Below are positions 7,426 through 64,000 of a stretch of 64,000 nucleotides of DNA, piece by piece. A model generated the notes under the pieces. It saw only the letters and a list, made by a program, of their open reading frames with translations, ran no database searches and was not told the origin of the DNA. This stretch comes from Trichodelitschia bisporula. Lineage: Eukaryota. Each line of letters begins with the position of its first letter. Position 1 is the stretch's first letter. The translations under genes and the position numbers were made by a program. The DNA is taken from the NCBI GenBank assembly GCA_010356995.1, contig ML996689.1, positions 514,691 to 578,690 of the forward strand, given 5' to 3'.

Positions 7426-7717
7426 CCTGGGCGGATGGGCCCCAGTATGCTGAATCCGTTCGAGTTTGGAGTATTTGAGCGATTCTGAAGGCTTGAACTC
7501 GAAAAAATTATCTTCGCCAAGCTTTGATGTTTTTTTGGTCGCAGACATATACCTTTGTGGCAAGGCTTTTGTAAGGCCATCAGCAACCCGCTTCTCTGGA
7601 GGTCAATCTCTCCGGATGCCTGCTTCTCCCTGACGTAGTGGTGCTGAATGCCTATGTGCTTTGTTCTCGGGTGAAACTGCGGGTTCTTGGCCAGGGCGAT
7701 CGCTCCTTGGTTGTCGC

Positions 7718-7891
7718 TGTTGGAATGCGGTGGCTGTGTTCAGCCTCACCCAGTTTCAGCCACAGCGCTCGAGTATAAGTAGACTCGGGGTCCCCACCTC
7801 TTTGACAATTAAGCAACTTGTTCATGGACAGACCTTTGGTCCAACTTATGATGCTGTGATGTTTCCATTGATCACACATCCCCTTTTAACA
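7718..7891 (+). repeat. Family-B LTR (174 bp), inverted relative to 1096-1270, no TSD
   Basis: tgttggaatgcgg...ccccttttaaca. Flanks gtcgc and ccgca do not match. Confidence 0.85.
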
Positions 7892-8470: not shown

Positions 8471-8537
8471 TATCTCCTCTATCAGAACAGTCTGTATGCT
8501 CCATCTGTCCCTCACTGCGCTGCCAAANNNNNNNNNN

Positions 8538-10109: not shown

Positions 10110-10968
10110 GTGGCTTGTGAGTTACGCTGGCAGCCGGCAACTAGCCCACAGTTTAGGCACGCACGAAGCCAGAACCGCAAATCATGGCAAGGATGAACTG
10201 CGGTGACAACAGCCAAGTCGTTACCCCCTGATGTACAAAAATGGGGCGTAAAGAGGTGCTTAGAGGGCGTATGGGTGTCGGACTTCATTTTCTCGATATT
10301 GATTCGAAGCTCTGGGAGTTGAGGTTACTGTACACGCTGCTTCAATCGTCACAGTATGAGAGCGAGTGTTTTGGATGGAATACACGGAATGCACCTTGAG
10401 GCGTCTTGATTAGCTTCGCTTCTTCTTGTATTTATTGCAGTTGTTCATGTTACGGTCACTCATGCAATCTCGAGATCTTCCAATGGAGAAAGAGGGAGCT
10501 CTGTCTGTGAAGGCACGAATATCCCGTAACGAGAAAGGATGGTGAACATATGGCGTAGGGAAGGGGTGTTCATCGCGGAGTCCCTTCCACTCACTCCGGA
10601 CTCTTGAACAGCACAGTTGACCCGGGCTGTTTATTCCTCATTGCCATATTTTACCATCTAACGCCATCACTACCGCTCGCAGACTTCGCCATACTTTACG
10701 CTCTTATCTCAATCTCTGTCCAACTTCAAGCACCCGTTAAACCTCCGGGCCCTCGGCCAGTGACGCCCTCCAGACGCCACTTAACGGCCGGTGCGATTTC
10801 GGAGGTCCTTAGTGTTGGAGCAACACCTCATTACTAGCATCGAAGGTTAGCCCAAAGGCTCTACTCTTGCGCTACTCCTAACGATGTATCAGTCGAGCTC
10901 TAGTCCCTGCCGCGGAGCATCCTTCGTCCCCACCGGCTCTCGCCTGATACCTAGGAAGCCCAAGCAGG

Positions 10969-17433: not shown

Positions 17434-18569
17434 GTAAGTCCTTTGTGGGTTAGGTATTTAGAGGATTTAGGGCAAGAACAAGAGGCCAACCGGAGAATTC
17501 AGAGACTACCTTCCTTCATAGATTTCTCTTGCCTCCATTTGCAAGATATACACCAACGTACCGGCTGGTTGAAGTGATGTCGACACCCCCATTCCGCTGC
17601 TGGCACCGAGTATCGCCTTCCGATTGCTCTTTGAGCCAGTCGAAACAATGTTTCCAACACAGCCCTGACGTTCTCGGGCCATGGAGCAAGAGTTAAGGGA
17701 AGGAGCACCCAAAGGCCTCTTAGAACTAGTATTCTGCGACACCTGTAACAACTGGAAACCAGCCCGCACTCACCATTTGCAATGATTTTGATCGCTGCGT
17801 GAGGCGCATGGACCATTTTTGTTCGTGGGTAGGACGCCTGGGGAGCGAAACCAGCGTGAAGTAATTTCTGCAGTTCACCTGCTACGCAATTAAATTTAGG
17901 AAGACATCCAGACCTGATACCAACAATCAACCAACTCACAGTCCCATGCACGTCGTCCCAACCACTTTTCTTTCTAATTCGAATTCAGAGCATCCCAAGA
18001 AGCTGCCGGGTGGCAAGTCTGGAGGTGGAGTCGATTATGAGGCTGGCAGGTCAAGAATATGACACGCATAAGGCCTGTCGTGGCATATTTGATGGTGATG
18101 AAGTCGATGATCGAGAGCACAGCCACATGGGATTGGTGTTTCATTAGGTCATGAATCGGCTTTGGTGGCACAGCTGGATCTCTGCCAGCTTCAAGCACCC
18201 GGCTCCGGCACCGCCAGTCAGATGCCGTAAAATTGGTGCACAACGCCAATTCCAAGGCGCGAGAGACGCCAACCGAAGAAGCCCTAACATAGGCTTTTCC
18301 ACTTCGGGTAGGGATGTGGCGGTGCAGAGGTCGGACGGCGACTTGGCGGAGGAGGTTGGCTGAGGAACGGGGAATATCTTGCTGGCGTCCGACTTGCATT
18401 GCCTTGCCAATGCGATGCAAGTCAGCGGTTATATCGCATCGTACGACTCTCTGCCCTAGTTCTTCGCCTCTTCTCTCTTCTCCATCCTCCATTGCAAGTG
18501 TTGCATCCTGGTTGTCCCTCCAGCCATCTCCATTTACCCCCAGTCGACTGCACCGCCATTCGCGACACC

Positions 18570-21061
18570 ATGGCCGCGACCAACGACGCGACGACGTCGT
18601 CTGATCTTCAGGCCTCCGCTGCAGCAATTGACTCCGCAAAGTCACCCGCCGCGCTCACCTTGGAACATGAACGTACCGTCGATCTCGGGTCCTCGTACAC
18701 CGCTGTTCCCGTGAATACACTCAACACTGCTGGGCCGCGCAACGACGGGCGCGAGCTTCAGCTCATCTGCGGCCCACTCATCAACTACCGGCGCATGAGC
18801 GGCGCCAACACGGAGAACCCTACATGGCATGGCAGCGTGTTGATTGTCACCGCTCCTGGACAGACGCAGCCCCAACTGACGCTCAAGTGCCTCGGGCGCG
18901 TCAGCGTCGGGACTGGAGCGACCAGTGATGCCACAGTGCTACCTTCGGACGGGGAGCTGCCGCAGCCGCAGACCATCCAAGGCCAGCGACTGTACGAGGA
19001 CCCGAAGCGTCAGTTCTGGCGGTTTGTGATCCAGGCGCCGATCCAGAAGTTCGAGGCTAAATGGGAGTACGCCATTACGCCGCTCAATATCTCCCTCGCT
19101 GGCAAGCGCTTCATCGTTCCGTCCAACATTCAATCGATGCGTATCCTGTTTCACTCTTGCAACGGGTTCAGCGTCGGCACCAATGTCGAGGAGTGGAGTG
19201 GCCCTGCTCTGTGGAACGATGTCCTCCGCATGCACAACCAGCAAGCCTTTCACGTCATGATTGGAGGCGGCGACCAGATCTATAACGATAGCGTGCGTGT
19301 GGATGATGGCCCGCTGCGCGAGTGGACGGAGATTTCGAATCCAGTGCGCCGGAGAGAATATCCCTTCGACGAATCTCTGCGCGCCCGATGTGACGAGTTC
19401 TACTTCAACAACTACGTTACTTGGTACAGTGCGGAGCCGTTTAAGACGGCCAATGGCTCGATTCCCCAGCTGAATATCTGGGACGACCATGACATCATCG
19501 ATGGGTTCGGCTCGTATACGGACCACTTCATGCGATGTGCTGTCTTCCGTGGTATCGGAGGCGTCGCGCACAAGTATGTATCTAGCACCCCTCTCGGACT
19601 GAGACATCAAGCTTTGGCCAAGCCTCTTACATTGCAAGCAAAAGCTTGATCGGTGAGCCATGCTGACTTCCTAGATACTATCTCCTATTCCAACACCACA
19701 TGGCCCCGCCGAAGACCACATTCACTACTGGCCCCGCCACTCCTCATTCCGCGTCTGGCGAGTCTCCCCAATCGATTCCACAGGACAACATATGGGTGCT
19801 CGAGGACGAGCCGGACCCATCGTACATCGTCGGCCTGCACCCCGGCCCGTACGTCGAGGAATGCAGCCGCTCCATCTTCACGCAGCTGGGTGCACGCATC
19901 GCCTTCCTCGGTATTGACGCCCGCACCGAACGCACGCGCCACCAAATCAACTATGAGGAAACGTACGACCTAATCTTCAAGCGCGTCAACGCCGAACTCG
20001 CCGCAAACCGCAACATCAAGCACCTGATCCTGCTCCTCGGCGTGCCAATCGCCTACCCGCGCCTTCAATGGCTCGAGAACATCTTCAAAAGCCCCATCAT
20101 CGCGCCCATCCGCTTCCTTAACAAGCGTTTCGGCCTCGGCGGCGGTCTGTTCAACAAGTTCGACGGGCAAGTCGATCTCCTCGACGATCTGGACGACCAC
20201 TACACGGCGCGGCAGCATAAGACCGAACGCCGCGCCCTCGTCCACCGCCTGCAAGAAACGGCCAAAGTCACCGGTGTGCGCGTCTCCATCTTAGGCGGCG
20301 ACGTGCACCTCGCGGCCGTCGGCCGCTTCTACAGCAAACCCGCGCTCGGCATACCACCCCCAAACGACTGGCGCTACATGCCCAACATCATCTCCTCCGC
20401 CATCACAAACAAGCCGCCGCCCGCCGCCGTCGCCAACCTCCTCGCCCGCCGCAACAAAGTCCACCACCTGGACCACGAGACCGACGAAACCCTCCTCGAG
20501 ATCTTCGACCACGACCCGGGCCACGGGCCAGATGCCAAGCCCGCCGTTAACCCAGGGAAGAAAACGGCGGAGGCAAATCACGCCACTATGCCGAGCCGCA
20601 ACTACGCCATCATCGCCGAGTCCCGCGATCACGCGCTGCCGTACGAGCCGCCGAGGCCGGCAACCGGCGCTGCCCCCCAGGACAGCAATGGGAATGGGCT
20701 TCCCCCGCCTAACCCTGCCTACCTCCAAGCCGAAGGGCACGGCTCCACCTCCGCCCTCAGCGAGGGGTCCCATGCCGCTTCTGCCACTCCGACGGCTACT
20801 ACGGGTGCCACGGCCCGCACCGGGCGCGGGAAGAAGATGAATCCGCGGAAGCCGATGCACGAGGGCGAGGTCGACGCTGGCGGCTCGCACCCTGCAGCCA
20901 CGGGGCTGGTGCGCTCGGGCCTTGGCGGCGAATTCGGGCTCGATGTGGCGATCCGCGTCGAGGTGAGCAACAAGGATCCGATGGGGCGGACGGAGGGGTA
21001 TGGATTTGCGATTCCGGGTCTGGATGTCACCGGTTATGCGGAGGAGGGATCGAGGTGGTAG
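18570..21061 (+). CDS. PhoD-like metallophosphoesterase domain protein
   Basis: FHSCNGFS, MIGGGDQIYND, NIWDDHDIIDGFGSY, LGGDVHLAA. Intron 19574-19674 joins the two ORFs. Confidence 0.85.
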
Positions 21062-47316: not shown

Positions 47317-50253
47317 ATGTAGTAGCTATAGCGCTCGCGCGCAGTATCCCAATCGGGCAAAGCAATTATGAAGGTAAGAAGAGCGAGTGTTATCAGTTTC
47401 AGGCGGACAGATTCCCGCGCCCGGCGCAGTTAAATCCCCAGTGCGCACGAAGTCGTCACCGTGGAAGCGAGACCCGGAACCTCCAAGGCTTTCGATTCCC
47501 ATGCTCGTCGATCGACACCACTCCAGCTTACCGAAACCATCCAGCGGCAATATAATTTCGTCCTTCGTGCTTGCTGCGTACGTCCTCCGGCCCATATGCG
47601 GCTAGCGGGGGCCAAACCCCTCATTTACACAAATTGCGCAGCGGAGCGCGCGCCCTGATGACGCTGCAATGTAGGGGCTTAAAGCTTCGCATATAGGATC
47701 GGCCTGCCCAGGGCCCGCACGACCGGTTCCCAGGGCCATGTGACTATTCATTCTTTCAGCACGTATGTGCGTTGGCCATCCTCGTCTGCTTTGGGCACAG
47801 TCTACCAAATCCGGATCCATCGGCTATGATGGCCGCAGGGTGCATCGGGCCGAGCGTCACACCGCGTGGGCATATCCGAATGGCCAAGGTGCCGAGCCCG
47901 TAACGGGTACCTGCAGTGGCCACGTAGGCCCAAAGCCCTGATCTCGACCGCCCCATCCTACGACCCACTTCCCAAGTCGCCGCGCGCATGGCCCGCATCC
48001 ATATTAGGCGAGCCAAACCTCCCCTTGGCAGGCCCTGTCAGCTGGTAGAACCCAGATTCAGGATATCCCTGGCGGCGATATTGCCGCCGATGCTGGGCGG
48101 CATATGACTGCGCGCGGGTAAGGGAATGCCCCGTTGCCGTGGCCCTCTTATAGTGCCTAGCAGAATGTGATGCCGTCGGGGTATTTGGCGAGCCAGGGCC
48201 AGGGTGGGTTGTGGGGTTGAATGTGGAGTGATGCGGGGTGAACGCGGGGGCATGTTGGATATGAGAACGTTGCCACTGCACCTGGCATGGGAATAGGGGC
48301 GATACAAGCAGCTGTGTGCTTGATGGGGTTCAACATGTGTGGCGTGTGACACTGAAATCCTGGAAGGATCGCGGATATCGGAGCTTCCGCCGATGTTGTC
48401 ATGGCTTGCGCTTGCCCACTCTTTGATCTTGCAATGTTAACCTGTCAAGGCGCCATGGGTGTGGGCGTCCATAACTAGTGGTTATCGACCCGTGTCCAGA
48501 TGGCTGTCCCAGATCGGCGCGTGAAAGTGGCTCGGGATGACCTCCGCACGTCATCTTAGATATGCAGGTCAAGCGCTCCCGCTGGCATCCAGCGGGAATG
48601 GACGAATGCATTGACAATAGTGCATGAGGATACCCTCCTCCAGGACAGCCATCCGGAATGGTATAATGAGAGCTGAGATAAGAGCTGCATATCTCCGTCA
48701 AGAGTGTTTCGCCCTCCAGATCGAGAGAAGGAAATGTAGCCGCATCCAGATGCACAACCATCATATTTTACTGCTGCAAGTTCAATGATCCGTGGGTACT
48801 TAACCATATGCCCACTGTTTTCCAACTCCAGTGTCATTGGGATTGGAACTGCTCAAATGGTTAAGGGGGAAGTCCTCGAACAGATGGCCATGGATACCAC
48901 AGCACGGCGGCAGACGTTCCGATGTCGATGGCTCCTTCGGAAGATGTGGCTGGTCCAGATGAGGAACCTGATAGAAAGGCCGGGTGCTGTCGATCTATTG
49001 TCTCCATTCCATAGCCTAATATCGGCATTGCAAGATCCAAAGAGATCACCTTTTGACCGGCCTTCATGGTGCTGACATCCCAACCTTCCCTACTAAACGC
49101 TCAGAGAAGGCCCGCTGGAAAGCCCGGATACCCTAACCCATCGACTTAACTGTAGCAATCCCTCGTGGCTTGAAACTGCAGCGTCGATTTGACCTCTCCT
49201 GCGCTTCGCTGAACCTATGCTAAGCATCGTTTAGCAAACCGTTCCTACCCACAAACTCAGAGCTGCTCCAAAGTGGCAGCCAGTTTCATCAACACCAAGA
49301 GAGCAAAAGCACCTGTGAGAATGCAAATGCCTCAACCACAATAAGCATCCGCTGTGACTTAAATCAGAAGCTTGCTGCTGATGAATCGATGTGTAGCCAA
49401 GATATACCCAGGACGTTCGGCAACGGTAATGTTTATCTCATATAAGGACTTGTGGCGTATGGATGCCAAAGATTGGTAGTGGGATTTGAGTCCGTAGGGA
49501 CAGGCTTGGGGCTGAGGATATATGCATAAACGTCATGGAATCTTGGAATGGAGTGAACTTCGACTCACATGCTCAGGGACTAAAGAAATTGGATGCCTTA
49601 TCGACACCCAGGTTCTGCCTTCCTGACCTGAGCTACGCATTATCATGCCATCTCTCATATCATATCACATCCGCGATTCTACAGAGGGACTTGGGACCCG
49701 TCCCGGAGACTGCTTGAAAACCATGTGCCCGGAATACCATCACTTAAAAGCGGCCTTTATGCTCTGATGCTCTGATACTAACCGCCGCCCTAACTCTTAA
49801 AGTACCAAAGATATACGCAAGTATCAAGCTCAGAAACTTTGAGTGCCACTCCATGGCAGCAGAGCTGCCTCTGCCCCTTGAATCCAGCGCAAGAAGCATT
49901 GTGCTTACATCAGCTTTGACAACGATCAATCTTGATGAGGCTGCGCTGGCACCCCGCACTGCTTTCACCAACACCATTCCCTGTCTCTGTCACGGATCTC
50001 CCTCGCCAACCATGGTGATGGCATGTGCCTCACCCACCGACGTGTTGCCGGGGTCAGGGCCTCCTGCCATAGCAGAGCCTAGCCCAACCGAGGGCTCCTG
50101 CCTAGGAGCGTGGAGAGATATTTGTATCGCAGTTCTCTTGACTTCTCCCATCCTCAAGCAATCAACTTTTGAACATACTCAACCTACCTTTGCCGGTACT
50201 GAGCCTCTGTGACAGTCTCAATCACCTTTGATCCATTTCCAGTTATCGCTATC

Positions 50254-51858
50254 ATGCGCCTTCTTCATACCACCTCCTACAAATTGAAGTCCTTCAGTGG
50301 TCCTCCTGACCCATATTGTATTATTTCCCACAAGTGGAGCCAGACACACGATGACATGACTTTCCAGCAATTGAATCAGATGCACTCCGGAGGCGACCCC
50401 AAATCCATGGAGCATCCAGGATTCGCAAAAATCAGAGGAGCCTGTGGGACTGCCTATGGGGCGGGCGGCTATCAATGGATATGGATCGACTCCTGTTGTA
50501 TCAACAAGGAAAGTTCAGCTGAGCTTGGTTACTCCCTCAACTTCATGTACCGCTGGTATTGACAAGCTCAGTTGTGCATAACCTACCTCGACGACGTCGA
50601 TGACTGGGATTTATCGGTCAGTGCCATATGGGGCCAGCACAACAAGATACAATTATCCGAGGACATGAAGGCCCGGCTCCGGAAAAGTCGTTGGTTCACA
50701 CGAGGCTGGACACTTCAGGAGTTGGTGGCTCCCCGCCCCGGCTGCTTGCAGTTCTATGGGAAGCACTGGAACTTGCTCGGAACCAAAGAGGGGCTTCGTG
50801 ACGTGCTCCTGGATAGCACGGAAATTCCCGTAATGTACTGTCGGACTGGGTGCAATGTGAAGAGTGCAACATCGCGCAGCGAATTTCCTGGGTGGCCCAT
50901 CGAGCCACAGCAGTCGAAGAAGACATGGCATACTGCTTGATGGGAATATTTGGGATCCATATGTTACCCAACTATGGTGAAGGTCTCGAATATGCGTTCT
51001 TGCGGCTGCAGGAGGAAATTCTAAGGAGGAGTGCGGATCAGACCATCTTCCTCTGGACGCCGGATCGCGAAAAATACAACCAAGGTCTGCTGGCAACCAA
51101 GCCGTCATCTCTCAGAAGATTGAGGGGATCCCTGTTGACGCTATACTCTGAATTAGCATTCACGCCGTCCCTTGGACCACGCGGTTTACAGGTTTCGGCC
51201 CTGTTGGAGGAACCCTCGACTGAAGGCAGCCCAGCGTCTTGGATGATCTGTCTTGATGTGCTGCGGAACAATAAGCGGATTGGCTTGGAGCTTGAAATGG
51301 ACCATACTAGCTCCAAGTTCGTGGCAAGGTTAGGGGCATTTCGACGCTGTGATAAAAAGACAGATGCCATTTCATCAACCTTGGAGTTAGGAAATAGAAG
51401 ATTCACATGACAGATCATTTTTGTGTCTCAACTGCCAGTCTTTGAACCTACGAGAGTGGAGAATTGAGCGGAAACTTCATTCGCATACCAGGCGCCAACC
51501 GAGTGGACATGTACCTCGATACGGTGGATCTGCAAGCAACGACGACAACAACAGAGAGACCTGTCTTTTGCAAGGGGGGATCGCGCTGTATCGCCATGAG
51601 TACCGTTCGGGCGTTCTTGAAATATTATATGCGGTATGCTTTGGGTTGAAAGGAGAGGATAATGTACCGTGGTGTACAGTCACACCAGCGGTGGAGGGGC
51701 GTCTAGAAGAGAGATATCAAGCAGTGGAAAGACTGAACCATCGATACACCAGCTCGGATGCAGAGTTGATGGCTTGTGGACACAAGGTCGTATGTGAGCA
51801 CATGTATATGCCAAGAGGAGGAAATGCAAGTTTTTACCTCAATCTTGATTGTACGTAG
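50254..51858 (+). pseudogene. HET-domain (heterokaryon incompatibility) pseudogene
   Basis: MRLLHT, YCIISHKW, WIWIDSCCINKESSAEL...MYRWY*, SRWFTRGWTLQELVAP, EDMAYCLMGIFGIHM.PNYGEG..AFLRLQEEI. Stop at 50560-50562, frameshift ~50830, further stops from 51408. Confidence 0.88.
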
Positions 51859-52296
51859 GGAAAATTGGACACCCAAATAATGCGAGAAACGCGAGATGAA
51901 TGACAATGGCTATGTACATGAATGAAGAAGCCTGAGGATGTATATCGTGAATTTCACGTAAAAGCCATCGTAGAAAGGGGAGAGTTGCGATGCAAGTGTA
52001 CCCCGTACGCCCCTCACAAATTCCCCGGGCGCCAGCAGCGACTTGGCAAGATTGCCTCGACCCCCTGCGCCAGTCGGCGTCGCAGACTCGCATCTCGCAG
52101 ACGCGCCATGTACTCCTTGCACCCATCCGTCTCAAGATACACCCAACCATCGTCTCCCTTTCCGACTCGACATCTGCACCTCGTCCGGCCATGCACCATC
52201 CTCTCACTCATCTTCCTCCTTCTCTCCAACTCCGCTAAACCCCTCAGAGAAGGAAGGACGCTTGTTCTGTAAACGTCTCCTGCTGCAGCTGCTGCA

Positions 52297-55200
52297 ATGC
52301 CGCGCCTCTGGCTTGATGCGACTCAGGACGATCAGTTCAATGATGGCCATCAGCAAGCCCTTCCCGACCGCTCATCTAACACCGTTGCTAGACCTCCAGC
52401 ACCACCGTACCTCCCTCAGAATCGCGCACCTCGTCAGCAGCACCGTCACGTTCTCCCCCTCCCCCCGCTGCACTCTCCTACCCCCCCCGAACGCCGTCGC
52501 TCCTCTGCGACGGTTCCTCATGCACCCTCTCCGACCGCAAGGGAAGCTAAACGGCGAAGCGAACGCAATGTAGCCTCATTGTCGTCGCCAGAGGTCATCT
52601 CGTCTCTCATCGACTCCCTCTCCTCCATCTCTATCCCCGCCGACGGCCACTTTGAAACGTCAACTCCCGTTCATGGTGCTCGCACTACCCCTGCTTCGCC
52701 TGTAATTCGGCCAATGCGTTCGTTTGGTGGAGAATCTGGAGGCAGTTTCGGCATCGACTACGGTGCCTACAAACAATCGCTGCGAGACGAGTTCGTCGAG
52801 CCGGACGACGCTGCCGAGCCGCCCGTTATCCGCACGTCAAAACGACCATCTGGCTTCTCCGACGTCACGGCTCCAAGAGGGAGGAAGGGTTCGGCCGCAT
52901 TGGGAGCATACATTCGATCTGGCGCTGCGCGAAGTTCCTCGTCTCTGATATCATTTGGTCGCGACGACGATGCGGCAAGTTTTACCGGGTTCAGCATCGA
53001 CAACACCACGCGCCGCCGTTCCATGGCTAGCGTGAGCAGAGAATCCTTTGAAAGTCGACGTAGCGCCAAAAAGGGCCATCGCAGTTTTACCGCTCTGGGT
53101 TCTAAAGATCGCCGGCGAAGCAAGGAAACAGACCCGAAGACAGATATGGGGAATGTGGGCGCAATAATTACGGAGTACCTCTACACTCCCAAGACCAACT
53201 TAATGCCAGGCAGTCCCACAAGTCCCAAGCGGCCGATGGCGTTCGACACAACCATAAAGGAGGAAGGTTCACCACATGAAGAACAGGCACCGCCTAATAG
53301 GTTGCCGAAGAAAAGAGAAGAGAGACTTTCTTTGATCGACACAACCAATCTTCCCAGCCCCGGGTTTGCTCCGCCTGTCCCCTCGCGCAGATCCTCACTG
53401 CGGCTCCAGGATGCGCCGACCCCTAACAACAGGCGATCGCATTCGCCGCGAAGATTCAGTGGTATATCCGCGACCAAGAGTGTGACTGTGACGGAGGAAA
53501 ACGAAACTCGATCTCTGCGCGTGCTTAGCACAATGGACGGCGACGATACGGAGGTCACAAAACGCATCAAGGAACTTAAGGCACGCAAGGAGCAGCGCGA
53601 CAGGGAATCTAGCCAGTCCATAGGGCCGGCATCGGCGGACCCTAGATGCACGGACCCAGGCGGTACATCCCCTCTATCTGACCACAGTCCTGCCGATGCT
53701 TCTACAAAGGCTCGGAAAGTCCTCGGACTGGCCTCTATCCATATTCCTCCTCCTGGACCACTCCCGGAGAAGCGCCCTTCCCGGGACAGCGGGATTTGCA
53801 GCGCCCATCTCAAGGCCGAACCCGAGCCAAATCGTCCCGGAACACCGCTAACACCCACACCACTTCCCATCAACTATGCATATGTCGTCCAGTCCTTGAA
53901 CTCAGACTCCCCTCCACCGGGTAAGCCAAGCTCGATCAGAGGCTCGATTCGTAGTACGGCCCCGAGCACCACCAGCCAGACACATCGCACTCACGCCGTT
54001 GGCGGCCGCTCCGCTGTCTCTCGCACCACAACTTCAAAGTCCTTATTATTGGAGACATCTCCACCGCCGCGCGATCCGCCTCCAGCACCTCCGGTAAACA
54101 TCAGCACCAATGCTGAAGTTACCCACGATCCCTCCGGGACAACCACACCCGTTGATCGCCAGTCGACCGAAACCTTTCCCACGCCCCGTGATTCGGCCTC
54201 ATCCGTTTCAACGTCCAAGCCCCGGAACTCAGCCTCTCTCCGCAAGCAGCGACGCCGCTGGTCCCACCCGGACCCTTCTTCGACCCTCGAGCGCCGCTCT
54301 AGCATGCGTTCAACATCTGCTTCTGGTCCTAAAGTCCCCACTCCGAACGTTGATACCCTTGCGGTTAAGCATCCCGAGACGGTGCTTGAGGAGGCGAACT
54401 ATGGTCGACCGTCCAGTGCCGACTCAGATATGGCAGTCCTGGCTGCGGTGCGGGCTTTTGTGGAACATCCACGTCTAAGTCGACGGATCCGTCATCCGGT
54501 GTCCGGCCGAGTCATAGCCTTCTCAGAAGTTGGGGATGTCAACGGTCATGCAGTATTTGTCTGTGTCGGCATGGGCTTGACAAGATATGTCACGGCATTT
54601 TACGATGAACTGGCAAGCGCATTGGGCCTCAGGCTCATAACACCGGATAGGCCTGGCGTTGGTGAAAGCCATACTGACCCCACTGGGACGCCTTTGAGCT
54701 GGCCTGGTATGTTCTCTAGACTGAATATATGCATTTGCTAACCCTGCTACAGATGACGTTCTTGCCATATGCCAAGCCCTGCATATACCTAAGTTCTCTA
54801 TTGTGGCTCACAGTGCTGGCGCAATCTATGCTCTGGCCACCGCTCTGCGCATGCCGCAGCATATCCGTGGTCGTGTACACCTCTTAGCACCCTGGATTCC
54901 CCCATCTCAGATGGCCCCGGTGGGGCTTGCAAAAACAGACCCACCTCCCGGAGCACAGCTACCTAAGTCTCAGCGCTTCTTGCGCGTCCTTCCGGCCCCC
55001 TTCCTAAAAGTTGCCAACTCGACCTTTCTCTCCGCCACAAGTGCTTCTCTCAGCCCTAACACTACCGGTGGCAGTGGCGGGCGTAAAAAGCGCAAAAGCC
55101 TACTCAGCAGTAGGGAAAGCACGCCATCCCCCTTGCCACCGCGCCCGAGCGCCAACCCACCGCATCGGCCTGGGCACACACGCCGCGAGAGCATTCTGCT

Positions 55201-55720
55201 GATGGACCAGCAAAACATGCCGGATGGCGAGGCAATGAAGGCTGCACGTAGTACACGTGACCTACGCACCGCAGCTAGCGCAGTTGGCTATTTGGAGAAG
55301 GAAGCGGCAGCACAGTCGCACAACTCCAAGAACTTCGAAGACGATCCAGCGTGGCGTGCGGCATATGACGACCGGCTTACGTTAGCCATCTGGGAACTGG
55401 CGACGACACATGCCAACCCCGCGGTCGACCTGCTTGTGTGCTTGGAACGGCACCAGCCGATCGGGTTTCGCTACCAGGATATAACTCGCGCTGTGGTGAT
55501 ACATCACGGGTCCGAGGACAAGCGCGTGCCTGTAGAGAATGTACGCTGGCTTGGACGATGTATGCGCAGGTGTGAAGTTCGTGTTCTTGACGGGCAAGGA
55601 CACGGGCTCATGGCATCTGCGCTGGTAATGGGAGGTGTGTTAGAAGAGATGGGGCGGGAGTGGAGGGATTGGGAGAGCGCGGTACGGAAGGGCATGGAAG
55701 GGAAGAAGCGCGAACTGTGA
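52297..55720 (+). CDS. Alpha/beta-hydrolase-fold protein with long Ser/Pro/Arg-rich N-terminus
   Basis: GRVIAFSEVGD, LRLITPDRPGVG, VAHSAGAIYALA, HHGSEDKRVP, GHGLM. Intron ~54707-54752. Confidence 0.88.
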
Positions 55721-56382: not shown

Positions 56383-57850
56383 TCAACCCGAACTGCGCCT
56401 CTTGCTTTGCAGATTATCACATTTGATATTTGCCCCACCCATTCCCTCCCACAGACAACCCTACTCCAACCCCCATGAATCAGTCCCACCCCTATTCTGA
56501 AAGGACAAAAGCCCAACCTCATCTATCGGAGGTGGGGGAAACAGCTTATGCCAGTAATGCCACAACAGCACAGTGACAGCCGTGAGTGGTAGCGCAAACA
56601 CCCAAAATATCCAAATCTTCTCCGACATGTGCCATTTCCCAGGTTGGCCATCTGAAGGGGGCGTGTAGTTGAAGAAACTGGTGCTGAATATAGCCTAGAC
56701 AGGTCAGGATACGAGAAAGAGGAGACTCTGTGGAGCGAAAACCCACCGAGATAAACGTCGACGGCAAAAACGCCAGCGTCATAAACGCAATCGTCCGCAT
56801 CGCCGAGTTATCCTGCCGCGCCGCATGGCCAATCTGAACGGAAATCCGGCTGTCATACTGCGCAACGATATTGAACGACTGACAATTAGCATCGCATCAT
56901 TATGTCAGCCGGCCAACTCACAAGGTTAATCTCGTTCGACAACCGCTCCTTATTCGACTGCTCCCGCAGCTTCAGCCCCTTGAGCAGGTGCTCCGCAAAC
57001 CTTAGCTGCTGCAGATGCGCCCGCCGCACCGCGCCCATGCCGCCGCCCGGGACCCGCACCGCAAAGCCCTCATGCCCCGCGATTATAGCATGCACAGTGC
57101 TTACCGCCAGATCCAGCGTCTCTGCCACGTGGATCGCATGGCGTGCTACATCATGTAGGCGGGGATAATCCGGCGACGGCCGCGTGCCGCTCGGGCGGCG
57201 CGTCTCGATGTCGCGCAGCAGGTTGCGGATGCGCCATACGGCGGATTCCTGCAGTGAGATGATGGGGTAGGTGAGGAGGCGGGCGTGGAAGGCGTAGGGG
57301 TCTGCGAGGAAGGCTGTTGTGAGGTCTGCGAGGTAGCATGGGGGCTGGTTGTCTTTGAAGTCGTTGCTGAAGGCTTCGGGGGGGTCGAAGACGAGGACGG
57401 TGGTTCGTCCGGGCTCCCAGCGGGTGAAGATGTTGAACTTTTGCCAGAAGTAGTCCTTTTTGTGGGGATTGCTGCCTTGGACTTGCTTGATTAGGAAGCG
57501 GAGCCAGGTATCTATGGTGGGTTAGGGGCGGGATCTCCCGAGGCGAGGCAGGAACTGACTGTGGCCATCGAACTTTCCATCGGCGTCGAAGGTGTCTTCG
57601 CATCCAAAGTAGCCGTTAGCTCGTCGTACGCAGTGTGTCCACCAGAGAGCTGGCATGCGGAACGCTTCGCAGATCGAGACTCGGCATTGGGTACAATCGC
57701 GGATCAGCGCTGCTGGTGCGAAACTTGACGAGGCTTAGCACTAAACATGACGACTTCACGAGCTCTTCTCACATTATAGTAAAGGATGCGTTCCTCCCCT
57801 CCTAGAATTCGCTCAGCATCTCAACGACATCCAAAAGTTGGTTAGTTTAC
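56383..57850 (-). CDS. Fungal CorA-like (Mg2+ transporter-like C-terminal TM pair) protein; 5' end unresolved, possibly disrupted
   Basis: RLHDVARHAIHVAETL, SNKERLSNEINL, AARQDNSAMRTIAFMTLAFLPSTFISAIFSTSFFNY, IWIFWVFALPLT. TAG at 57802-57804 in the putative upstream exon. Confidence 0.7.
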
Positions 57851-58878
57851 TCTGCCAATGCCCTTTATTGATAGATGCCTTTCTGACACAATGCGCTTAG
57901 TCCACGACTCTCCATCTGTTCTTCCTTAGCAGCTGGACTAACTACCCTTGCTCATTCACTTACTCTCCTCGAAGATCGTCAGATGCGAAAATCCTTTACA
58001 GTCTTTCTCTAGCATCGCGGAAACTTCAGCTAGTGCAGCTAGTGATACTAATGATGTGATAGAAAAATAAGCTTGTGGTCATCAGCCACCGTCAAGCTGG
58101 TGATATCTCCGCTCGACAGTTTATACCTTGACCGCTCCTCAGCCGCTTATGCACGCCACCTATATCCCATGTTCCCGGTGGGACACTCGTGGCGCACAAC
58201 AGCCAATATGCGACAGGTCCACGCGCACAAAACGCCCTGCACAGCCCGCAGGCAGGGCGGTAGCGGTACTCGCCGCAAAAGCGCCGCAGCAGACAAGGAG
58301 GCATCCCCGTAGGTCTCGCGTCAAAGTAGATCATTAAGCGATGCCCGCCCACCGCAGACCGCAGCCCCCCTATGCGGCTCTGCGCTGTGCAATCACCTTC
58401 CATCTCCGTCATCACCCCCCCGTCGAGAATGGGTAAGGCGCGGTCTCGACAGGTCGAGAGGCCGAACCCTGCCCCTTGCTTCTAACTGCGGTCCAATGGG
58501 ATGGAACGTGGTCCGATTCTGTGTTTCGATGCGCAGGCTGCGAGGCCAGTTTTGAGGTCGCAGACACCGGCTTTTGGGGCTGATAGGGGTGTGTTCTTTG
58601 TGCTTTGATTCCGGCTGTGGAACACGCCGAAGGCTGAAGAATGGATATTCTTAGCCAAGCAACTTTTCGTAACCCCGCGCCGAGAGAGCATGTTGGCCTG
58701 TGGTGGCTTGAAAGAGTCACCGGGGGCAAGGCGACGGTGGTTCGCGATGCGCTCGTCGTCGCTGGGGTAAATAGCTGCGCCGCCGCATGTGAGCCTTATC
58801 GTACAACGAAGCATTTTCCAGGGCAAAAATTCGTGTACTCTGATATTCATTGCTGCAATCAGCCTTGCCAACATCATC

Positions 58879-60714
58879 ATGGTTGGTCAGAAAGACAAAC
58901 ACCCGCTGCAGCGTCGGCTACGCAATACGCCTGTTTGCATTCTGTGCGCTCGCCCAAAGGAAGCCGAGAAGATTGCGTCCACACTAAAAGCGGGGGAGAA
59001 GGTAGCAGGGCACCAAATCTCGCCCACCTACAAGGGACTCACGTTTTGGTTCGGGGCCTTCACCCTAGCCGACGGCAGCGAGCTTGCATATTATGTCACG
59101 TATTCGAGAAGACAAGGAGTCCAATCCTTCATTGTCGACGCGAGTATCATATTGCACACACTGCGACCCCGATATGTGGTTCACTCTGGGGTCTGCGCCG
59201 GCTTCCGGGATCCCGAGGGAACAATCCAGTTAGTCGAACCTCCAGCCCAGAACGTCAGCTGATGCAAGGCAGACTTACAGATGTGATATTCGGCGAGGCT
59301 GGCATCAACTATGAGGAAGGCAAATGGGAAGTCCACGGCGAAGAGATGGTTTTCCTGCCGGATTGGGATACCGTCCGGGTGTCCGCCGGGGACATGCAGT
59401 CCTTTGCCGAATACCGGCCCAGGACCCACTACGGCGACTATCTTACCGGCTCGGCAGTGAGAGGAGACGCCGAGCGCGTTTTCAAGCAGGCTAAATCGGT
59501 GGGTCATCCGCGCGGGGTTTCTGGACTGTCTAACTTTCGAAGCTTGGCCGAAAGGCAATTGCGCTCGATATGGAAGCCAGCGCATTCATCAAGCTCTGCA
59601 GCGCTGATTACCATCAATTCTTCAGCGAGATCACCTGCCTTGGGGTCATCAAGGGTGTCTCTGATTTCGGAGACGCCCACAAGTCCGCCGATCAAGATGG
59701 CGGTGCCTACGATACTGCGCTGGAAAACACGGCTGTGGCGCTGCGAGACTGGATCACTCACCAAATAGAAGCCATCACCTGGAAGCCGAACTATGGTGAG
59801 CATGATGTTGCTCATCCAGCCGGTTGCTGACGAATTCAGACGATGAACCAGCCGCGGACCTTGTTCCGGGATACTACAACAATTTTGTCCACTGGCTCGT
59901 CCAAACGCTAGATTTCCATCAGGAGGCGAAGCTGAAATCAGATCCAAACATCCGGGTAAGTGATGCCTTCCGGGTAAAGAGTTGTCCTAACCGCTGCCAG
60001 ATCCCTGGCTGTGAGATCTTAGGCCTGAAAGTTGTCATGCCTCCTGAGAACGACCCCGTGTCCTTTTCGCAGTCGGCTTTCGATCGCGAGGTTCGCAAGC
60101 AGTACAACATGGTCCACCTCTTGATTGGACAGGTGTGTGTCTCTTCTCGTGAAGATTTGCCGCTGACTGGGGACCAGGATGAGAAGGCGAGAGACGTGAC
60201 GTATAAGGCCGGATACCTCATTGACTTTCCGCGCACCATCAACTCACTGGTGAAATACGAGGACCGCGTCTGGCAGGCCGAAGTGTTTGCCGCTATCCTC
60301 AGCCAACAGCCTTACTTCTCGGTCCCAGAAACCACTAAGATTCGTCCATTCGCGAGTGTTTGCTCCTTCGAGAAGTTCCAAGCCTTCATGGAGGAGCAGA
60401 AGGACAGCGAAGATCCAATCGACAAGTACATGCGGCCGGGGGAGTCCGGGGACGAGCAGACGACGCTGGGACAGCCTCCTACCGGCCCCCAAGGTTCGAA
60501 AACTCGAGAGCCAACGGTAGTGGAGGAAGTCAAACCAAAGGCTGCTTCATCGACTCTTGATACAGAGTCTCGCTCAAAATCTCTTCCGCTACAAGCTCTT
60601 GGATCGGGCGAGCAAGCTCCTACGAAGGCGATGCGTCACAGAATATCGATGCCGCGCTTCCGGTTTTTCGGCCGTCGGCTGCATTCTGCGCCCGCGGAAG
60701 GGATGGCAGCTTAG
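58879..60714 (+). CDS. PNP_UDP (nucleoside phosphorylase / MTA nucleosidase fold) fused to a C-terminal STING-like domain, 6 exons
   Basis: Introns 59229-59272, 59499-59542, 59796-59839, 59956-60000, 60133-60177 give one open frame. PNP motifs HSGVCAG, ALDMEASAF, VIKGVSDFGD..K are clear. The C-terminal ADLVPGYYNNFV, LKVVMP, LIDFPRTINSL, EDRVWQAEVF are STING-like by eye. Confidence 0.8.
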
Positions 60715-61371
60715 CAGTTGGTGATCAGGAACGCCGCTCTGAGGTGTTAAATCGAGCTGGAAGTTCGTGGTTATGGTGAGCCGTTAGTGGGCCTAGATGA
60801 TTTGTTACTGCGTACCAAGATGGTTGTACTGACGTCTTTTTGGAAGTGTTTGGAGCCTTGAGAGGGTTGGATGAGATGCAAAGTGCTAGATTTATTGATT
60901 TTGTTGAAGAGCTGCGGAGTTAACGTGGAGATGATGTGATCGGTAGTGACGTGCATGCCGTTCAACCCTGGGGAAGGAGTAAACGACACCAAGATGGATC
61001 CTGCAGACCTTGAAAAGCTTCATTCCACATCATTCCTTTCACAAGATGTTGCCAGACACGCCAGACCACTAACCTTACAGCATTACTTTCTCATCAAACT
61101 TTGTTCATGCTACAGTACGCTGACTCTGGAAGCGAAGAAAATTTGCTCTCAGTTCCAATACCTCAAATGCGGCCCCTTGGAACATTTTTGATAAGATACG
61201 AGTATGGGATGTCGCATGTCATCGTGTGCTGCGGACGCGCATGAATGATGCTTTAGGGCTTGCTGGTTGCAACGGCCCTCGACTCGTCCATGGCTTGCAA
61301 GTGTGGGCGGGGCAACCTCTCTCCACTCTCGACCACTTCATCATACTCTATATCATCTCCTCTCCCGGAAA

Positions 61372-62308
61372 ATGTCTACGATGCGCGCTCTCTTCATCCT
61401 CTCTACCCTTGCATCTTCAGTATTTTGCTGGGGAAATCTCGGGCATCGCACCGTCGCTCTGCTGGCAGAGCAAGACTTCACGGAAGAGGCGCAGGCCTTC
61501 GCAAAGCAGCTGCTGAACGGGACGGACATCGATACGGCGGCCATCTGGGCAGATAAGTACAAAGACACGCCTGATGGGCGACCGACAGGAAGCTGGCACT
61601 TCGTCAACGCAAACGACACGCCTCCGCTCGCTTGCGATGTCGTTCCGCGCCGGGACTGCGCGCAGAGCTGTATTCTCAATGTCATTCCTAACATGGTGTG
61701 TCATTCATGAGTTACGGTACCGTCCGATGCTGACCTCCTAGGCTCGGCTCCTGAGGAGCCTAGATACGACATTGCCTGAGAAGATGGAGGCTTTCAATTT
61801 TCTCATTCATCTGGTTGGCGACCTGCACATGCCGCTGCATGTCGAGGGCCTCGCGCGTGGCGGAAATGATATTCATGTCACTTTTGCCGCCGAACCCACG
61901 ACTCTGCACATCATATGGGATGTCCACATTCTGCAGAAGCGCGCCGCCGAGTATGGCACCGACGAGCGCGCAGCTGCAAAGCGGTGGGCACAGGAACTTC
62001 ACAACAGGAGCTACGATTTGACCTCAAGGGCTGCCGGGTTGCAGCATTATTTGTCTGACCCGCACCCTGTTGATCTTGCCCAACCTGAGGAGGAAATCCT
62101 CGCGTGGGCCCAGGAATCCAACTCGTGGGTTTGCAGATATGTCTTGAAAGATGGGCAGACCAGTGTTTCCGGCCGCGAGCTCTCTGGTGGCTACTATGAG
62201 GGCGCAGTGCCCATCGTCGATGAGTTGATTTGGAAAGCTGGCAAACGATTGGCATCGTGGATTAATGCATTGGCGGCGGAGCAGTCCCGGTCACCGGTCG
62301 GGCCCTGA
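61372..62308 (+). CDS. S1/P1 nuclease (secreted)
   Basis: Signal peptide then WGNLGH, WADKYK, WHFVN, FLIHLVGDLHMPLH, GGN, LHIIWD, AGKRLASWIN. Intron 61696-61741. Confidence 0.93.
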
Positions 62309-62765
62309 GCAGACCGGCCCTAGGCTCTCCACTTGAAATCCGTATTCCGCATCGAAACAGTTTCGAGGTGATGAAAGTGCCTTGCAACTTTGCTGCACTC
62401 TGAAAATGGCGCTGCACATAGGAAGTCCCTTGGCAGCCAGGAGCAGCTCAACATTGACTGGGCCAACCACTGCAACCTCGTTGCTACGGTGGCCACCACT
62501 GCTGTGGTCACACAACTTCCACAGCCACCTTTCGCACGAAACCAGATGAATGGTAAAATTCCGTTATCGCTTCGCTTCACACTGGCTGCGGCGCCACAGT
62601 GGGCGACGGCGGACGAAGAGACACTTACCTGCGACCTGGAGCTCAGCCTCTTCTCCCATTTCCTTCATGAACGCGCTTTTTCGGCGCTCAATCCCGCAAA
62701 GTCGAGCTCACCGACCAGGTTTAGCCCTTTTAGTCCCAATCTCAAGTCATTTCTCTTCTTTCATC

Positions 62766-64000
62766 ATGGCAGGCAATCCAAGAAAGCGCACAGTCAACCG
62801 GACGGAATGGCTCGAGGAACCTAGCTCCAACGGAAAGCGCTTCTTCATCCCGAACACCTGCAAGTGGATTCGGACCGAACAGCCTTTTACATCCTGGCTC
62901 CGTAACGAAGACTTGTCGCCTTTACTATGGGTTAATGGGGCTCCTGGCAGTGGCAAGACCTTTCTCGCGCAGAACATCGTTGAATATATCACGGAGTCGA
63001 ACCCGCGTGCGACCGTCCTCAGTTACTTCTGCGATGCATATTCCACGCCGGCCTCGATTGCTCGTGCCTTCACCGCCCAGCTTCTCCGCGATGAACGGGT
63101 CGCCGAAGAGGCTCGTACTGATATTGCGCACGTCCTGGGGAGCCAGCCGGGACTAACGGATAATGCCGGCTTCCCGCTATGGGAGAAGCTTACTTCGCTG
63201 TCCCAATGGAATCGGTTAACCTTCATTGTCATTGATGGCCCAGATGAGATGAAGAAGGCTTACTTGGACGGCTCTGAATTTGACGTCCTCGACCGGCTTC
63301 TTCAAATCGTTCTCGTGAAGCCTGGGGCCGGAAGCGTCAGGGTCTTGGTCTCAAGCCGCCCGGAACCACACCTCCACGCGGTGCTTAAGCACTTCTCGCG
63401 GATGACACCCTCCGCCGAAAAGGTCTCCGAAGACATGGAGCGCTTTGTATCGGCTGAGATTACTCGATTCCCACAGCTGCAGCCACATCGAGAAAAGATT
63501 ATCAAGACGATATGCCCCGAGGCCGACGGGATATTTCTCTGGGCTGGGCTTGCGATCAAGGCCCTCGCTGCTACGGGCGCCGAGGGCGATATCATGCGCG
63601 ATCTCGATTACCCGACACTCGACAATCTGTACACCAAGATCCTCCAAGACACAGATGAATTATCACCTTTCGATCTTGACCTCCGCAAACATATCCTCGA
63701 AGCCATTACCGTGGCGGTCCGTCCACTTAGGGTTGTCGAGGTCATGAATGCGGTGCTTCTCTCTACGAACGCCTTGATTCTGGATTTTAGGACGAGAGCC
63801 ATCAAGGTCTGCGGCACGTTGGTGAAAATCGAGGATGACGAAATCAAGCCCATCCATTTCTCGCTCCGGGACTTCCTCCAGAAGCAACCAAAGCCCCTTC
63901 AGATCGAAAGCGCACATTTGCACATGACGCAAGCCTGTATCCAATACCTGAGTCACCCCGCCTTCACCAAGTTCTACGATGCACTACCAGATGTCGATCA
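62766..64000 (+). CDS. NACHT-type NLR (STAND NTPase), partial; runs off the window
   Basis: Open frame absent from the ORF track: NTCKWI, LLWVNGAPGSGKT (Walker A), FIVIDGPDE (Walker B), LVSSRPE, ADGIFLWA, CGTLVKI, IHFSLRDFL. Confidence 0.92.
   Translation, partial: MAGNPRKRTVNRTEWLEEPSSNGKRFFIPNTCKWIRTEQPFTSWLRNEDLSPLLWVNGAPGSGKTFLAQNIVEYITESNPRATVLSYFCDAYSTPASIARAFTAQLLRDERVAEEARTDIAHVLGSQPGLTDNAGFPLWEKLTSLSQWNRLTFIVIDGPDEMKKAYLDGSEFDVLDRLLQIVLVKPGAGSVRVLVSSRPEPHLHAVLKHFSRMTPSAEKVSEDMERFVSAEITRFPQLQPHREKIIKTICPEADGIFLWAGLAIKALAATGAEGDIMRDLDYPTLDNLYTKILQDTDELSPFDLDLRKHILEAITVAVRPLRVVEVMNAVLLSTNALILDFRTRAIKVCGTLVKIEDDEIKPIHFSLRDFLQKQPKPLQIESAHLHMTQACIQYLSHPAFTKFYDALPDVD

Follow-up and report, generated by a model that had tools for sequence, protein, structure and literature searches.

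A four-gene block around a fungal PNP-STING gene as a candidate immune cassette of filamentous ascomycetes

Introduction

We analyzed a 64,000-nucleotide stretch of the genome of Trichodelitschia bisporula (contig ML996689.1, positions 514,691 to 578,690; hereafter the window). Near its right-hand end, four consecutive genes encode a CorA-like membrane protein, a fusion of a PNP_UDP nucleosidase-type domain with a STING domain (PNP-STING), an S1/P1 zinc nuclease, and a NOD-like receptor (NLR) with a NACHT domain. Related genes stand in the same order in other fungal loci, between flanking genes that differ from locus to locus. We propose, with a probability slightly better than even (about 0.55), that PNP-STING is the center of an immune cassette of filamentous ascomycetes whose genes are anciently linked, co-inherited and functionally coupled.

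Results

Conservation of the four-gene block across fungal loci

A preliminary description of the window, made from the DNA letters alone, had named the four genes in their present order and orientation and placed gaps of about 660 and 460 bp between the last three. Open reading frames (ORFs), Pfam searches, gene models and splice joints bear this out (Table 1), the gaps being 657 nt between PNP-STING and S1/P1 and 457 nt between S1/P1 and the NLR. Its domain calls (PNP, STING, S1/P1, NACHT and CorA-like) likewise agree with Pfam matches and with Foldseek and VIA fold comparisons.

To compare this arrangement with others, loci were taken from metagenome contigs with a single STING peptide pattern, GYLIDFPR, which gave 46 matches, 7 of them encoding a relative; neighbors were found by tblastn of the window's own neighboring genes. 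Some of these loci are near-duplicates (L006 equals L007 at 99.97% and L002 equals L003 at 99.2%), L004 and L007 are related at 71-75% nucleotide identity, and the rest are alignable as protein only, so that the set consists of five lineages and the short L001 (1446 nt). A CorA-like sequence lies upstream on the opposite strand in all five lineages with a left flank, and the NLR lies downstream in all four with enough right flank; at the end of L002, 18 codons match the NLR N-terminus. The S1/P1 gene between PNP-STING and the NLR is intact in three of five lineages, reduced to a frameshifted C-terminal remnant in one and absent from one, and taken as a whole the cassette is intact in three of five lineages, the remaining two showing partial decay. 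The preliminary description had considered that PNP-STING homologues might never co-occur with these neighbors; instead, the STING-motif loci carry CorA-like, S1/P1 and orthologous NACHT-TPR NLR genes in the same order.

The similarity between L004 and L007 extends across the block alone. In L004 the block is flanked by HET, DJ-1 and SDR genes on one side and APH and HET genes on the other, and in L007 by EMC1 on one side and MFS and Zn_clus on the other. We found no cross-matches among the flanks of L004, L007 and the window, and the left-hand genes of the window (HET and the 822-aa ORF that leads into an alpha/beta hydrolase) had no match in any locus. Because the flanking genes differ in every locus, the conserved unit is the block and not the region. 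A tblastx comparison revealed no further conserved ORF in the intergenic spaces. Between L004 and L007, seven segments of the four genes gave synonymous divergence (dS) values of 0.76-1.71 and omega values of 0.008-0.19; in this lineage pair, the one tested, all four genes are under purifying selection. Protein identity between the window and the loci is 28-62% (tblastn segment ranges). We conclude that the adjacency of these genes is more than chance and that their linkage is very probably ancient and kept by selection.

We considered whether the gene order might have no functional meaning, the block being a passenger of horizontal transfer or of a large mobile element that has not yet been broken up. 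The confinement of the L004/L007 similarity to the block, between unrelated flanks, fits relocation, and LINE-like elements occur elsewhere in the window (Table 1). However, dS of 0.8-1.7 for L004/L007 and the low protein identity to the window point to long separation, and omega of at most 0.19 in all four genes indicates that each is maintained. Moreover, flanking direct or inverted repeats of note, of the kind that would mark a mobile element, were not found, and no transposase-like ORF lies inside or beside the block. We regard a passenger block as very unlikely.

The CorA-like and PNP-STING genes diverge from an intergenic region that is presumably a common promoter region, and the same head-to-head arrangement is present in L003, L004, L005 and L007. 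The element 'TGCGGCTGAAA' occurs in this region in L004 (8692-8702), L007 (8541-8551) and L003 (1671-1681), two of which are related; it is only partial in the window (58139, 58632) and L005, and the signal is weak. Two 7-mers are common to all five intergenic regions, against 0.13 expected from simple shuffles.

Table 1. Coordinates of the four-gene block, of other features of the window, and of the block in other fungal loci
Locus	Feature	Position	Strand	Remarks
Window	CorA-like membrane protein gene, coding sequence (CDS)	56461-58015	-	421 aa
Window	CorA-like CDS introns	56694-56745, 56879-56921, 57512-57559, 57724-57772, 57801-57849, 57916-57963	-	all removed in X1/X2 contigs
Window	CorA-like intron in 5' untranslated region	58072-58126	-	X1 only
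Window	CorA-like/PNP-STING divergent intergenic region	58016-58878		863 bp between the two start codons
Window	PNP-STING gene	58879-60714	+	537 aa, six exons
Window	PNP-STING exons	58879-59228, 59273-59498, 59543-59795, 59840-59955, 60001-60132, 60178-60714	+	
Window	PNP_UDP domain (putative, Cap17-like nucleosidase)	58879-59795	+	exons 1-3; introns 59229-59272, 59499-59542
Window	STING domain (predicted, bacteria-like)	59840-60420	+	exons 4, 5 and first part of 6; in-frame introns 59956-60000, 60133-60177
Window	PNP-STING disordered C-terminal tail	60421-60714	+	from family alignments and translations
Window	S1/P1 zinc nuclease gene	61372-62308	+	one intron, 61695-61740
Window	NACHT-(TPR) NLR gene, 5' part	62766-64000	+	411 codons; runs past window end
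Window	Antisense transcript over whole PNP-STING CDS	58210-60863	-	X2 contig 3 (2518 nt), X1 contig 1
Window	HET pseudogene	50203-51410	+	in-frame stop 50560-50562 in HET core; frame change near 50817-50940
Window	822-aa ORF, proline/serine-rich, no Pfam match, into alpha/beta-hydrolase segment	52273-55720	+	weak Abhydrolase/Hydrolase_4
Window	LINE-like ORF	1852-5574	-	reverse transcriptase and endonuclease/exonuclease/phosphatase domain
Window	LINE-like ORF	8515-10140	-	reverse transcriptase only; looks like a truncated copy
L004	CorA-like; PNP-STING; S1/P1; NLR	6751-7765; 8857-10375; 11029-12037; 12784-13905	-; +; +; +	
L007	all four genes			order and strands as in L004
L005	CorA-like; PNP-STING; NLR	247-1095; 2263-3008; 3791-4678	-; +; +	no S1/P1
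L003	CorA-like; PNP-STING; weak S1/P1	475-931; 2419-4015; 4880-5125	-; +; 	contig ends before NLR

The PNP-STING gene and its predicted product

The PNP-STING gene model, read from the DNA, contains five GT..AG introns of 44-45 nt each. It is supported by a 537-aa Cadophora sp. protein (P0002) of the same architecture (PF01048 plus PF20300), by exon borders that equal the limits of tblastx conservation with other loci, by canonical introns at the same five places in L004, and by the identical removal of intron 5 in the public model for this locus (P0003). That public model, a T. bisporula hypothetical protein of 210 aa (60025-60714) that the window encodes without a mismatch, spans part of the STING domain and the tail only. 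Because it covers only the last 210 residues, the fusion is invisible to searches of annotated architectures.

A read-through ORF (59806-60714), in which two in-frame introns were retained in the query, matches prok_STING (PF20300) with 23.9 bits (E 4.5e-5), the Pfam gathering cut-off being 27.1 bits. Among homologues, P0002, P0012 and P0008 score 39.5, 28.5 and 18.3 bits, and P0015 gave no match to this family. We used the window read-through translation and a 30-sequence family alignment to obtain an AlphaFold2 (AF2) model of the STING domain, which has a confidence score (pLDDT) of 81.8, with low confidence confined to the two retained-intron stretches. In a Foldseek comparison with the PDB, all 50 listed matches of this model are STING proteins, the best being SfSTING (E 5.7e-6), with TM-scores up to 0.73 on the target. 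VIA-align gave Z scores of 10.1-12.0 against 13 bacterial STING entries and 8.4-9.0 against human, rat, coral and choanoflagellate STINGs; SfSTING and the Larkinella STING reached Z 12.0 with a root-mean-square deviation of 2.8-2.9 Å over 132-138 aligned residues. As Z scores are higher against bacterial than against animal STINGs, the fungal domain appears bacteria-like, and the model predicts a bacteria-like STING cyclic-dinucleotide-receptor fold for the window protein. A PDB profile search with the family alignment reached Cap12 at E 1.2 only, besides a spurious match at 0.036, so the STING assignment rests on fold comparison. By alignment only, the 'YYxNF' helix of PNP-STING corresponds to that of the c-di-GMP-binding Cap12 (8hy9).

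With the STING domain as query, HMMER retrieved 30 proteins at E at most 1e-3 from 1.84 billion representatives, many of them last-exon fragments. The family members whose sequence was read share the fungal-type 'YYKAGYLIDFPRT' motif or a variant of it; P0026 (2667 aa, in a subtilase-family cluster) lies outside this reading.

The N-terminal half scores above the PF01048 cut-off in the homologues P0002, P0015 and P0012, and tblastn gives 47-62% identity between the PNP exons of the window and the corresponding parts of the metagenome loci. The PNP half of P0015 matches the PADLOC model PDLC00759, a PN-superfamily effector of the antiphage signaling system based on cyclic oligonucleotides (CBASS), at 1.8e-8 and PDC-M60C at 3.4e-17, and the STING half matches the STING part of the PADLOC CBASS TIR-STING effector model PDLC00729. 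The best PDB sequence matches of the PNP half are methylthioadenosine/S-adenosylhomocysteine (MTA/SAH) nucleosidases: 'LDMEASAF' and 'GISDYGD' of P0015 align with 'VEMEASAI' and 'AISDVAD' of one of these (3dp9), and the window keeps 'LDMEASAF' and 'GVSDFGD'. We take the Glu of 'MEA' and the Asp of 'SD' to be the catalytic residues of the nucleosidase. Judged by these motifs and matches, the PNP half is probably a Cap17-type nucleosidase domain with its catalytic motifs kept.

The disordered tail ends in a conserved basic/Ser/hydrophobic motif. In the window it reads 'RHRISMPRFRFFGRR' (about 60634-60678) and is followed by the stop codon; other examples in the family, placed after a long disordered linker, are 'KKRSSIFGFLKR' and 'RKRSFPSLLNRL' (L004 10600-10678; L007 10470-10546). 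This motif looks like a basophilic-kinase site or like an amphipathic patch that binds membranes, and it recalls the signaling tail of vertebrate STING; we regard it as a candidate docking, membrane-binding or phosphorylation site. In L003 (about 4300-4560) and P0019, a WW domain (PF00397; E 8.3e-6, 26.2 bits, cut-off 26.9) replaces the basic motif.

An NLR family without a recognizable effector domain

Within the ORF at 62550-63998, Pfam detects NPHP3_N (92.5 bits, 4.2e-26), NACHT (32 bits, 1.4e-7) and GPIID_WHD (24.3 bits), and the NACHT domain contains the P-loop 'GAPGSGKT'. The start codon at 62766 was fixed by the N-termini of relatives. The part of the ORF upstream of this start ('FRYRFASHW...') resembles a STING tail and was set aside, since homologues start the NLR at 62766. 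In the window, L004, L007, L005 and the database proteins P0042 and P0043, about 45 mostly basic residues precede NACHT/NPHP3_N, and no N-terminal effector domain was found in the N-termini of the four loci or in the precomputed Pfam lists of the two database proteins. Because only these residues precede NACHT, we consider the NLR to be without an effector domain.

One contig extends the NLR gene 2044 nt past position 64000. As the repeat region of the window NLR lies beyond that base, its TPR assignment comes from the L004 and L007 orthologues, NACHT+TPR proteins of about 800 aa with TPR_10 and TPR_12 matches. We searched proteins of more than 720 aa in a 5.8-billion collection, scoring the 8000 candidates that share the most words with the query. 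Identity of the window NLR to P0042 and P0043, both NACHT+TPR proteins, is 44-45%; that of the L004 and L007 NLRs is 43-44% along about 800 aa, and the next match is only 24% identical. From these identities, the block NLRs appear to be one narrow orthologous family of effector-less NACHT-TPR proteins.

The NLR N-terminus has two conserved features. In one, 'RKR ... KRKR', a pair of basic clusters is spaced by about 10-15 residues in the manner of a bipartite nuclear localization signal; the other, 'EW[LI]', is a repeated element immediately ahead of NACHT (window 62766-62900; L004 12715-12860; L007 12711-12860; P0042 residues 1-45).

The CorA-like protein and the S1/P1 nuclease

The spliced CorA-like ORF is identical at 196 of 403 positions to P0038 of Lepidopterella palustris, one of four homologues found (P0038-P0041). 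In the ESM Atlas the family falls in Ascomycota 'CorA-like Mg2+ transporter' clusters with scores of 0.97-0.99, and Pfam returned no match for the exon pieces of the window gene, even at E at most 10. The top Foldseek PDB matches of the AF2 model of P0038 (pLDDT 69.9) are all Thermotoga maritima CorA (E 4.4e-10, target TM-scores 0.5-0.58). These matches assign the protein to the CorA fold, which is defined by an alpha/beta N-domain, long stalk helices and two C-terminal transmembrane (TM) helices; the window protein has the two C-terminal TM helices. The loop after TM1, which we take to be the position of the GMN filter in CorA, reads 'AIFSTSFFN' (S-T-S) in the window and 'AIFSMSFFN' (S-M-S) in P0038, with no GMN signature. 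Because S-T-S or S-M-S replaces GMN, the CorA-like protein is probably not a canonical Mg2+ channel.

The S1/P1 gene matches PF02265 in two pieces (61.6 and 125.6 bits; 1.3e-16 and 4e-36) that cover profile positions 1-94 and 102-257 of 258; the ORF span with the Pfam match is 61249-62308. Judged by eye, a hydrophobic leader directly precedes the mature 'WGNLGH' in the window, L004 and L007, which suggests a secretory enzyme.

Contigs from two runs, X1 and X2, derive from one sample and are RNA by guess only, so that no expression ranking is possible. They contain ten canonical splice joints: seven in the CorA-like transcript, one in S1/P1 and two on the minus strand across PNP-STING.

These proteins could also be read as a nucleotide scavenging unit, in which the nuclease releases nucleotides, the membrane protein imports them, a STING-controlled PNP salvages them and a STAND ATPase regulates the process. 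In favor of this reading, S1/P1 nucleases act outside the cell, some members of the PNP_UDP family are salvage enzymes, the PNP half has MTA/SAH nucleosidases as its best PDB sequence matches, and the X1/X2 contigs contain spliced S1/P1 and CorA-like transcripts. Nevertheless, the PNP half fits the defense models above (PADLOC CBASS PN-superfamily, PDC-M60C), and the solved structures listed as matches are all STING receptors of bacteria, animals or choanoflagellates, proteins with an immune role. The CorA-like protein lacks the GMN filter and we know of no CorA-family member that is a nucleoside carrier; S1/P1 is lost in two of five lineages. NACHT-TPR proteins of this type are fungal NLRs, according to the part of Dyrka et al. 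(2014) available. We consider scavenging highly improbable.

Antisense transcription across PNP-STING

The antisense transcript covers the whole PNP-STING coding sequence (Table 1), and its introns at 59202-59278 and 60757-60815 are spliced, with CT..AC joints on the plus strand and donors GTAAGT and GTACGC. Because its longest ORF is 147 aa, this RNA is probably non-coding. It apparently starts in the PNP-STING/S1-P1 intergenic region, near the start of the S1/P1 contig at 60991. We suggest that a bidirectional promoter lies between the two genes, and the antisense RNA could serve as a silencer of a toxic PNP-STING effector.

A 5008-nt X2 contig runs from 60991 past the window end, spanning S1/P1, the 457-nt gap and the NLR. 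Since one contig covers both genes, their transcripts overlap or read through, alternatives between which a contig cannot tell.

Genes beside the block

The preliminary description had also listed a HET pseudogene upstream. HET pieces with an in-frame stop and a frame change are indeed present at the position in Table 1; they lie outside the conserved block, and the pseudogene is not a member of it. In L004, intact HET genes flank the block (3-1985 and 18320-20374). The 52273-55720 ORF lies between the HET pseudogene and the cassette of the window and has no counterpart in the other loci.

Discussion

Weighing a coupled cassette

Several points weigh against functional coupling of the four genes, the argument for which is one of gene position. 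The linkage counts draw on only five lineages, two of them (L004 and L007) related, and on loci from one pattern; PNP-STING relatives with variant motifs lie outside the GYLIDFPR sampling, and the named carriers Cadophora (P0002), Aspergillus brasiliensis (P0008), Staphylotrichum (P0020), Pyrenochaeta and Zasmidium lie outside the counts. In L002/3, PNP-STING is intact beside a CorA-like gene whose similarity is lost after the N-terminal two-thirds and the frameshifted S1/P1 remnant. In L005, the last ~50 PNP residues and the STING domain are all that is left of PNP-STING and S1/P1 is gone, with CorA-like and NLR kept. Because these lineages decay piecemeal, the members can persist without each other, and their interdependence is not strict. 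Ascomycota have a large CorA-like family. The S1/P1 enzyme appears secretory, versus a cytosolic location for PNP-STING and the NLR, and because the compartments differ its biochemical link to them is indirect at best. Among the X1/X2 contigs, the one with antisense splicing retains the five sense introns of PNP-STING, and a spliced sense PNP-STING mRNA was not seen, which such contigs cannot exclude.

Two further negatives narrow the form that coupling could take. When the first 50 residues of the NLR were compared with the termini of its neighbors in the window, L004 and L007, nine of ten local alignments were matched by 38-169 of 200 shuffles; the sole nominal exception, the L007 PNP N-terminus (6 of 200), is absent from the window and L004. 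Because the NLR N-terminus and the neighboring termini have no common motif beyond shuffles, the NWD2/HET-S amyloid model does not apply. Pfam searches for cGAS/DncV-like nucleotidyltransferases (CD-NTases; nucleotidyltransferase, SMODS, Mab-21 and OAS families) found none among the 82 ORFs of at least 130 aa in the remaining window or among the cluster ORFs, and no cyclase-like family appeared among the 37 ORFs of at least 110 aa of the 20-kb loci L004 and L007, a search that could miss smaller or heavily spliced genes. The preliminary description had already seen no CD-NTase or cGAS-like cyclase in the window, a reading that holds, and had likened the genes to a CBASS-like operon. Because no cyclase was found in the window, L004 or L007, the block is not a CBASS operon. 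The broader idea of that description, one defense module, survives in part: conserved linkage, differing flanks and purifying selection speak for it, and the missing cyclase, the antisense-spliced RNA over PNP-STING and the two lineages with lost or broken members speak against it.

A possible, if somewhat doubtful, alternative is that PNP-STING acts as a self-contained receptor-effector for foreign cyclic dinucleotides, its neighbors being uncoupled, fast-evolving defense or stress genes that share an island and perhaps promoters. Sensor and effector are united in one protein, the intact copy in L002/3 stands beside broken CorA-like and S1/P1 genes, and the HET genes at L004 and the HET pseudogene of the window are what an immune-gene-rich region would hold. 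The available part of Li et al. (2025 preprint) adds a homodimer model and reports no cGAS-like receptor (cGLR) in fungi. Yet three gene families retain their order and orientation at dS above 1 although the flanks are different in every locus, and the NLRs are one narrow orthologous family rather than arbitrary ones, and a family that lacks an effector domain of its own.

A working model

If the four genes form a functionally coupled cassette, a 3'-5' cyclic (di)nucleotide would bind the STING dimer. As no cyclase is linked, the source of this ligand would lie outside the cassette, and it would probably be bacterial or otherwise made elsewhere. Binding would lead to STING oligomerization, upon which the PNP domain would cleave ATP or dATP, so that the hyphal compartment would stop growing or die. 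On the model of TIR-STING filaments and of Cap17, we infer that PNP-STING may be a ligand-gated ATP nucleosidase. The effector-less NLR would provide a second sensing or regulatory input, with PNP-STING, the CorA-like channel or both as its effector in trans, so that NLR and PNP-STING together would be a split equivalent of the PNP_UDP-NACHT-TPR receptors common in fungi. The CorA-like protein might work at the membrane, as an effector or a conduit. As 3'-5' cyclic dinucleotides are cleaved by nuclease P1, the secreted S1/P1 enzyme might assist from outside the cytosol, as a part that can be dispensed with, by processing or removing signals in the form of nucleic acids or 3'-5' cyclic nucleotides.

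We also entertain, as an unlikely variant, a STING pathway that needs no cyclase. The NLR would take the upstream place of a CD-NTase or cGLR, sensing a pathogen cue and switching on PNP-STING and the CorA-like channel, directly or indirectly, possibly by docking on the basic C-terminal tail of PNP-STING, and S1/P1 would tune the extracellular nucleotide signal. If true, this would be the first physical and genetic link between the NLR and STING arms of innate immunity in one conserved eukaryotic block, and a new mode of STING activation.

Relation to known systems

The effector logic of PNP-STING, a cyclic-nucleotide sensor fused to a cell-arresting enzyme, is that of bacterial CBASS effectors (TIR-STING/Cap12, Cap17), and the best structural matches of the window STING domain are those of TIR-STING filaments. 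The fungal block differs from CBASS in that no CD-NTase is linked, its genes are eukaryotic, with introns and promoters of their own, and PNP-STING is accompanied by an NLR, a CorA-like protein and an S1/P1 nuclease. A combination of PNP and STING among bacteria was not found in the searches made.

As in NWD2/HET-S pairs, an effector-less NLR is encoded beside a gene for a death-type effector; here, however, there is no common motif, the NLR N-terminus is basic and like a nuclear localization signal rather than amyloid-like, and the genes number four and not two. Type III CRISPR systems contain CorA-family membrane effectors with a linked signal-degrading nuclease. The parallel with them is a membrane protein that has the CorA fold but not its usual Mg2+ function and that is linked to components of nucleotide signaling and to a phosphodiesterase or nuclease; this likeness is at the level of fold, and the family of the fungal protein is a large one in Ascomycota.

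Within fungi, the PNP-STING protein is already known, and the conserved four-gene cassette appears to be new. The sections available to us of Rousset et al. (2023 preprint) describe fungal PNP-STING, with a Pyrenochaeta example, and identify PNP domains of the Cap17 type, one of them from a fungal NLR, as ATP nucleosidases. Li et al. (2025 preprint), as far as available, report fungal PNP-STINGs as 'standalone genes' and give an AlphaFold3 homodimer model of a relative and a Zasmidium cellare model; neither NLR nor NACHT appears as a word anywhere in that text. The window protein shares the two-domain architecture and the family of this published clade (Rousset et al. 2023; Li et al. 2025), and its STING domain is closer to bacterial than to animal STINGs, in agreement with Li et al., whereas in the accessible text the clade is standalone, with no mention of an NLR, nuclease or CorA-like neighbor, and here it is the core of a four-gene block. 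Culbertson & Levin (2023), in the portion at hand, list bacteria-like STINGs in five eukaryotic groups, fungi not among them, and in a 2025 review of fungal cell death STING occurs in a reference only. We found no published description of the PNP-STING neighborhood; members or neighbors may be given in supplements (Table S6 of Rousset et al. and the tables of Li et al.).

Two further eukaryotic arrangements bear comparison. In the accessible part of Dyrka et al. (2014), PNP_UDP accounts for about 20% of the domains annotated at the N-termini of fungal NLRs, and PNP_UDP/NACHT/TPR proteins are listed. The block contains the same three modules, PNP, NACHT and TPR, but here PNP is on a separate neighboring protein, fused to STING, and the NLR begins with NACHT. 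The choanoflagellate cGLR-STING pairs (Li et al. 2025, available part) are alike as an operon-like conserved STING neighborhood in a eukaryote. In those pairs, though, the neighbor is the ligand-making cyclase, whereas in the fungal block there is no cyclase and the neighbors belong to other families.

Implications

Because the gene model at this locus is a 210-aa fragment, surveys of annotated architectures undercount the PNP-STING family. Fungal PNP-STING, recently presented as an orphan in genomes without cGAS-like enzymes, gains three candidate partners: one specific family of effector-less NLRs, a GMN-less CorA-fold membrane protein and a secreted nuclease. The block would be a rare fungal case of operon-like conservation of an immune cassette, and it suggests that some 'domain-less' fungal NLRs may work via effectors encoded next door, without amyloid motifs.

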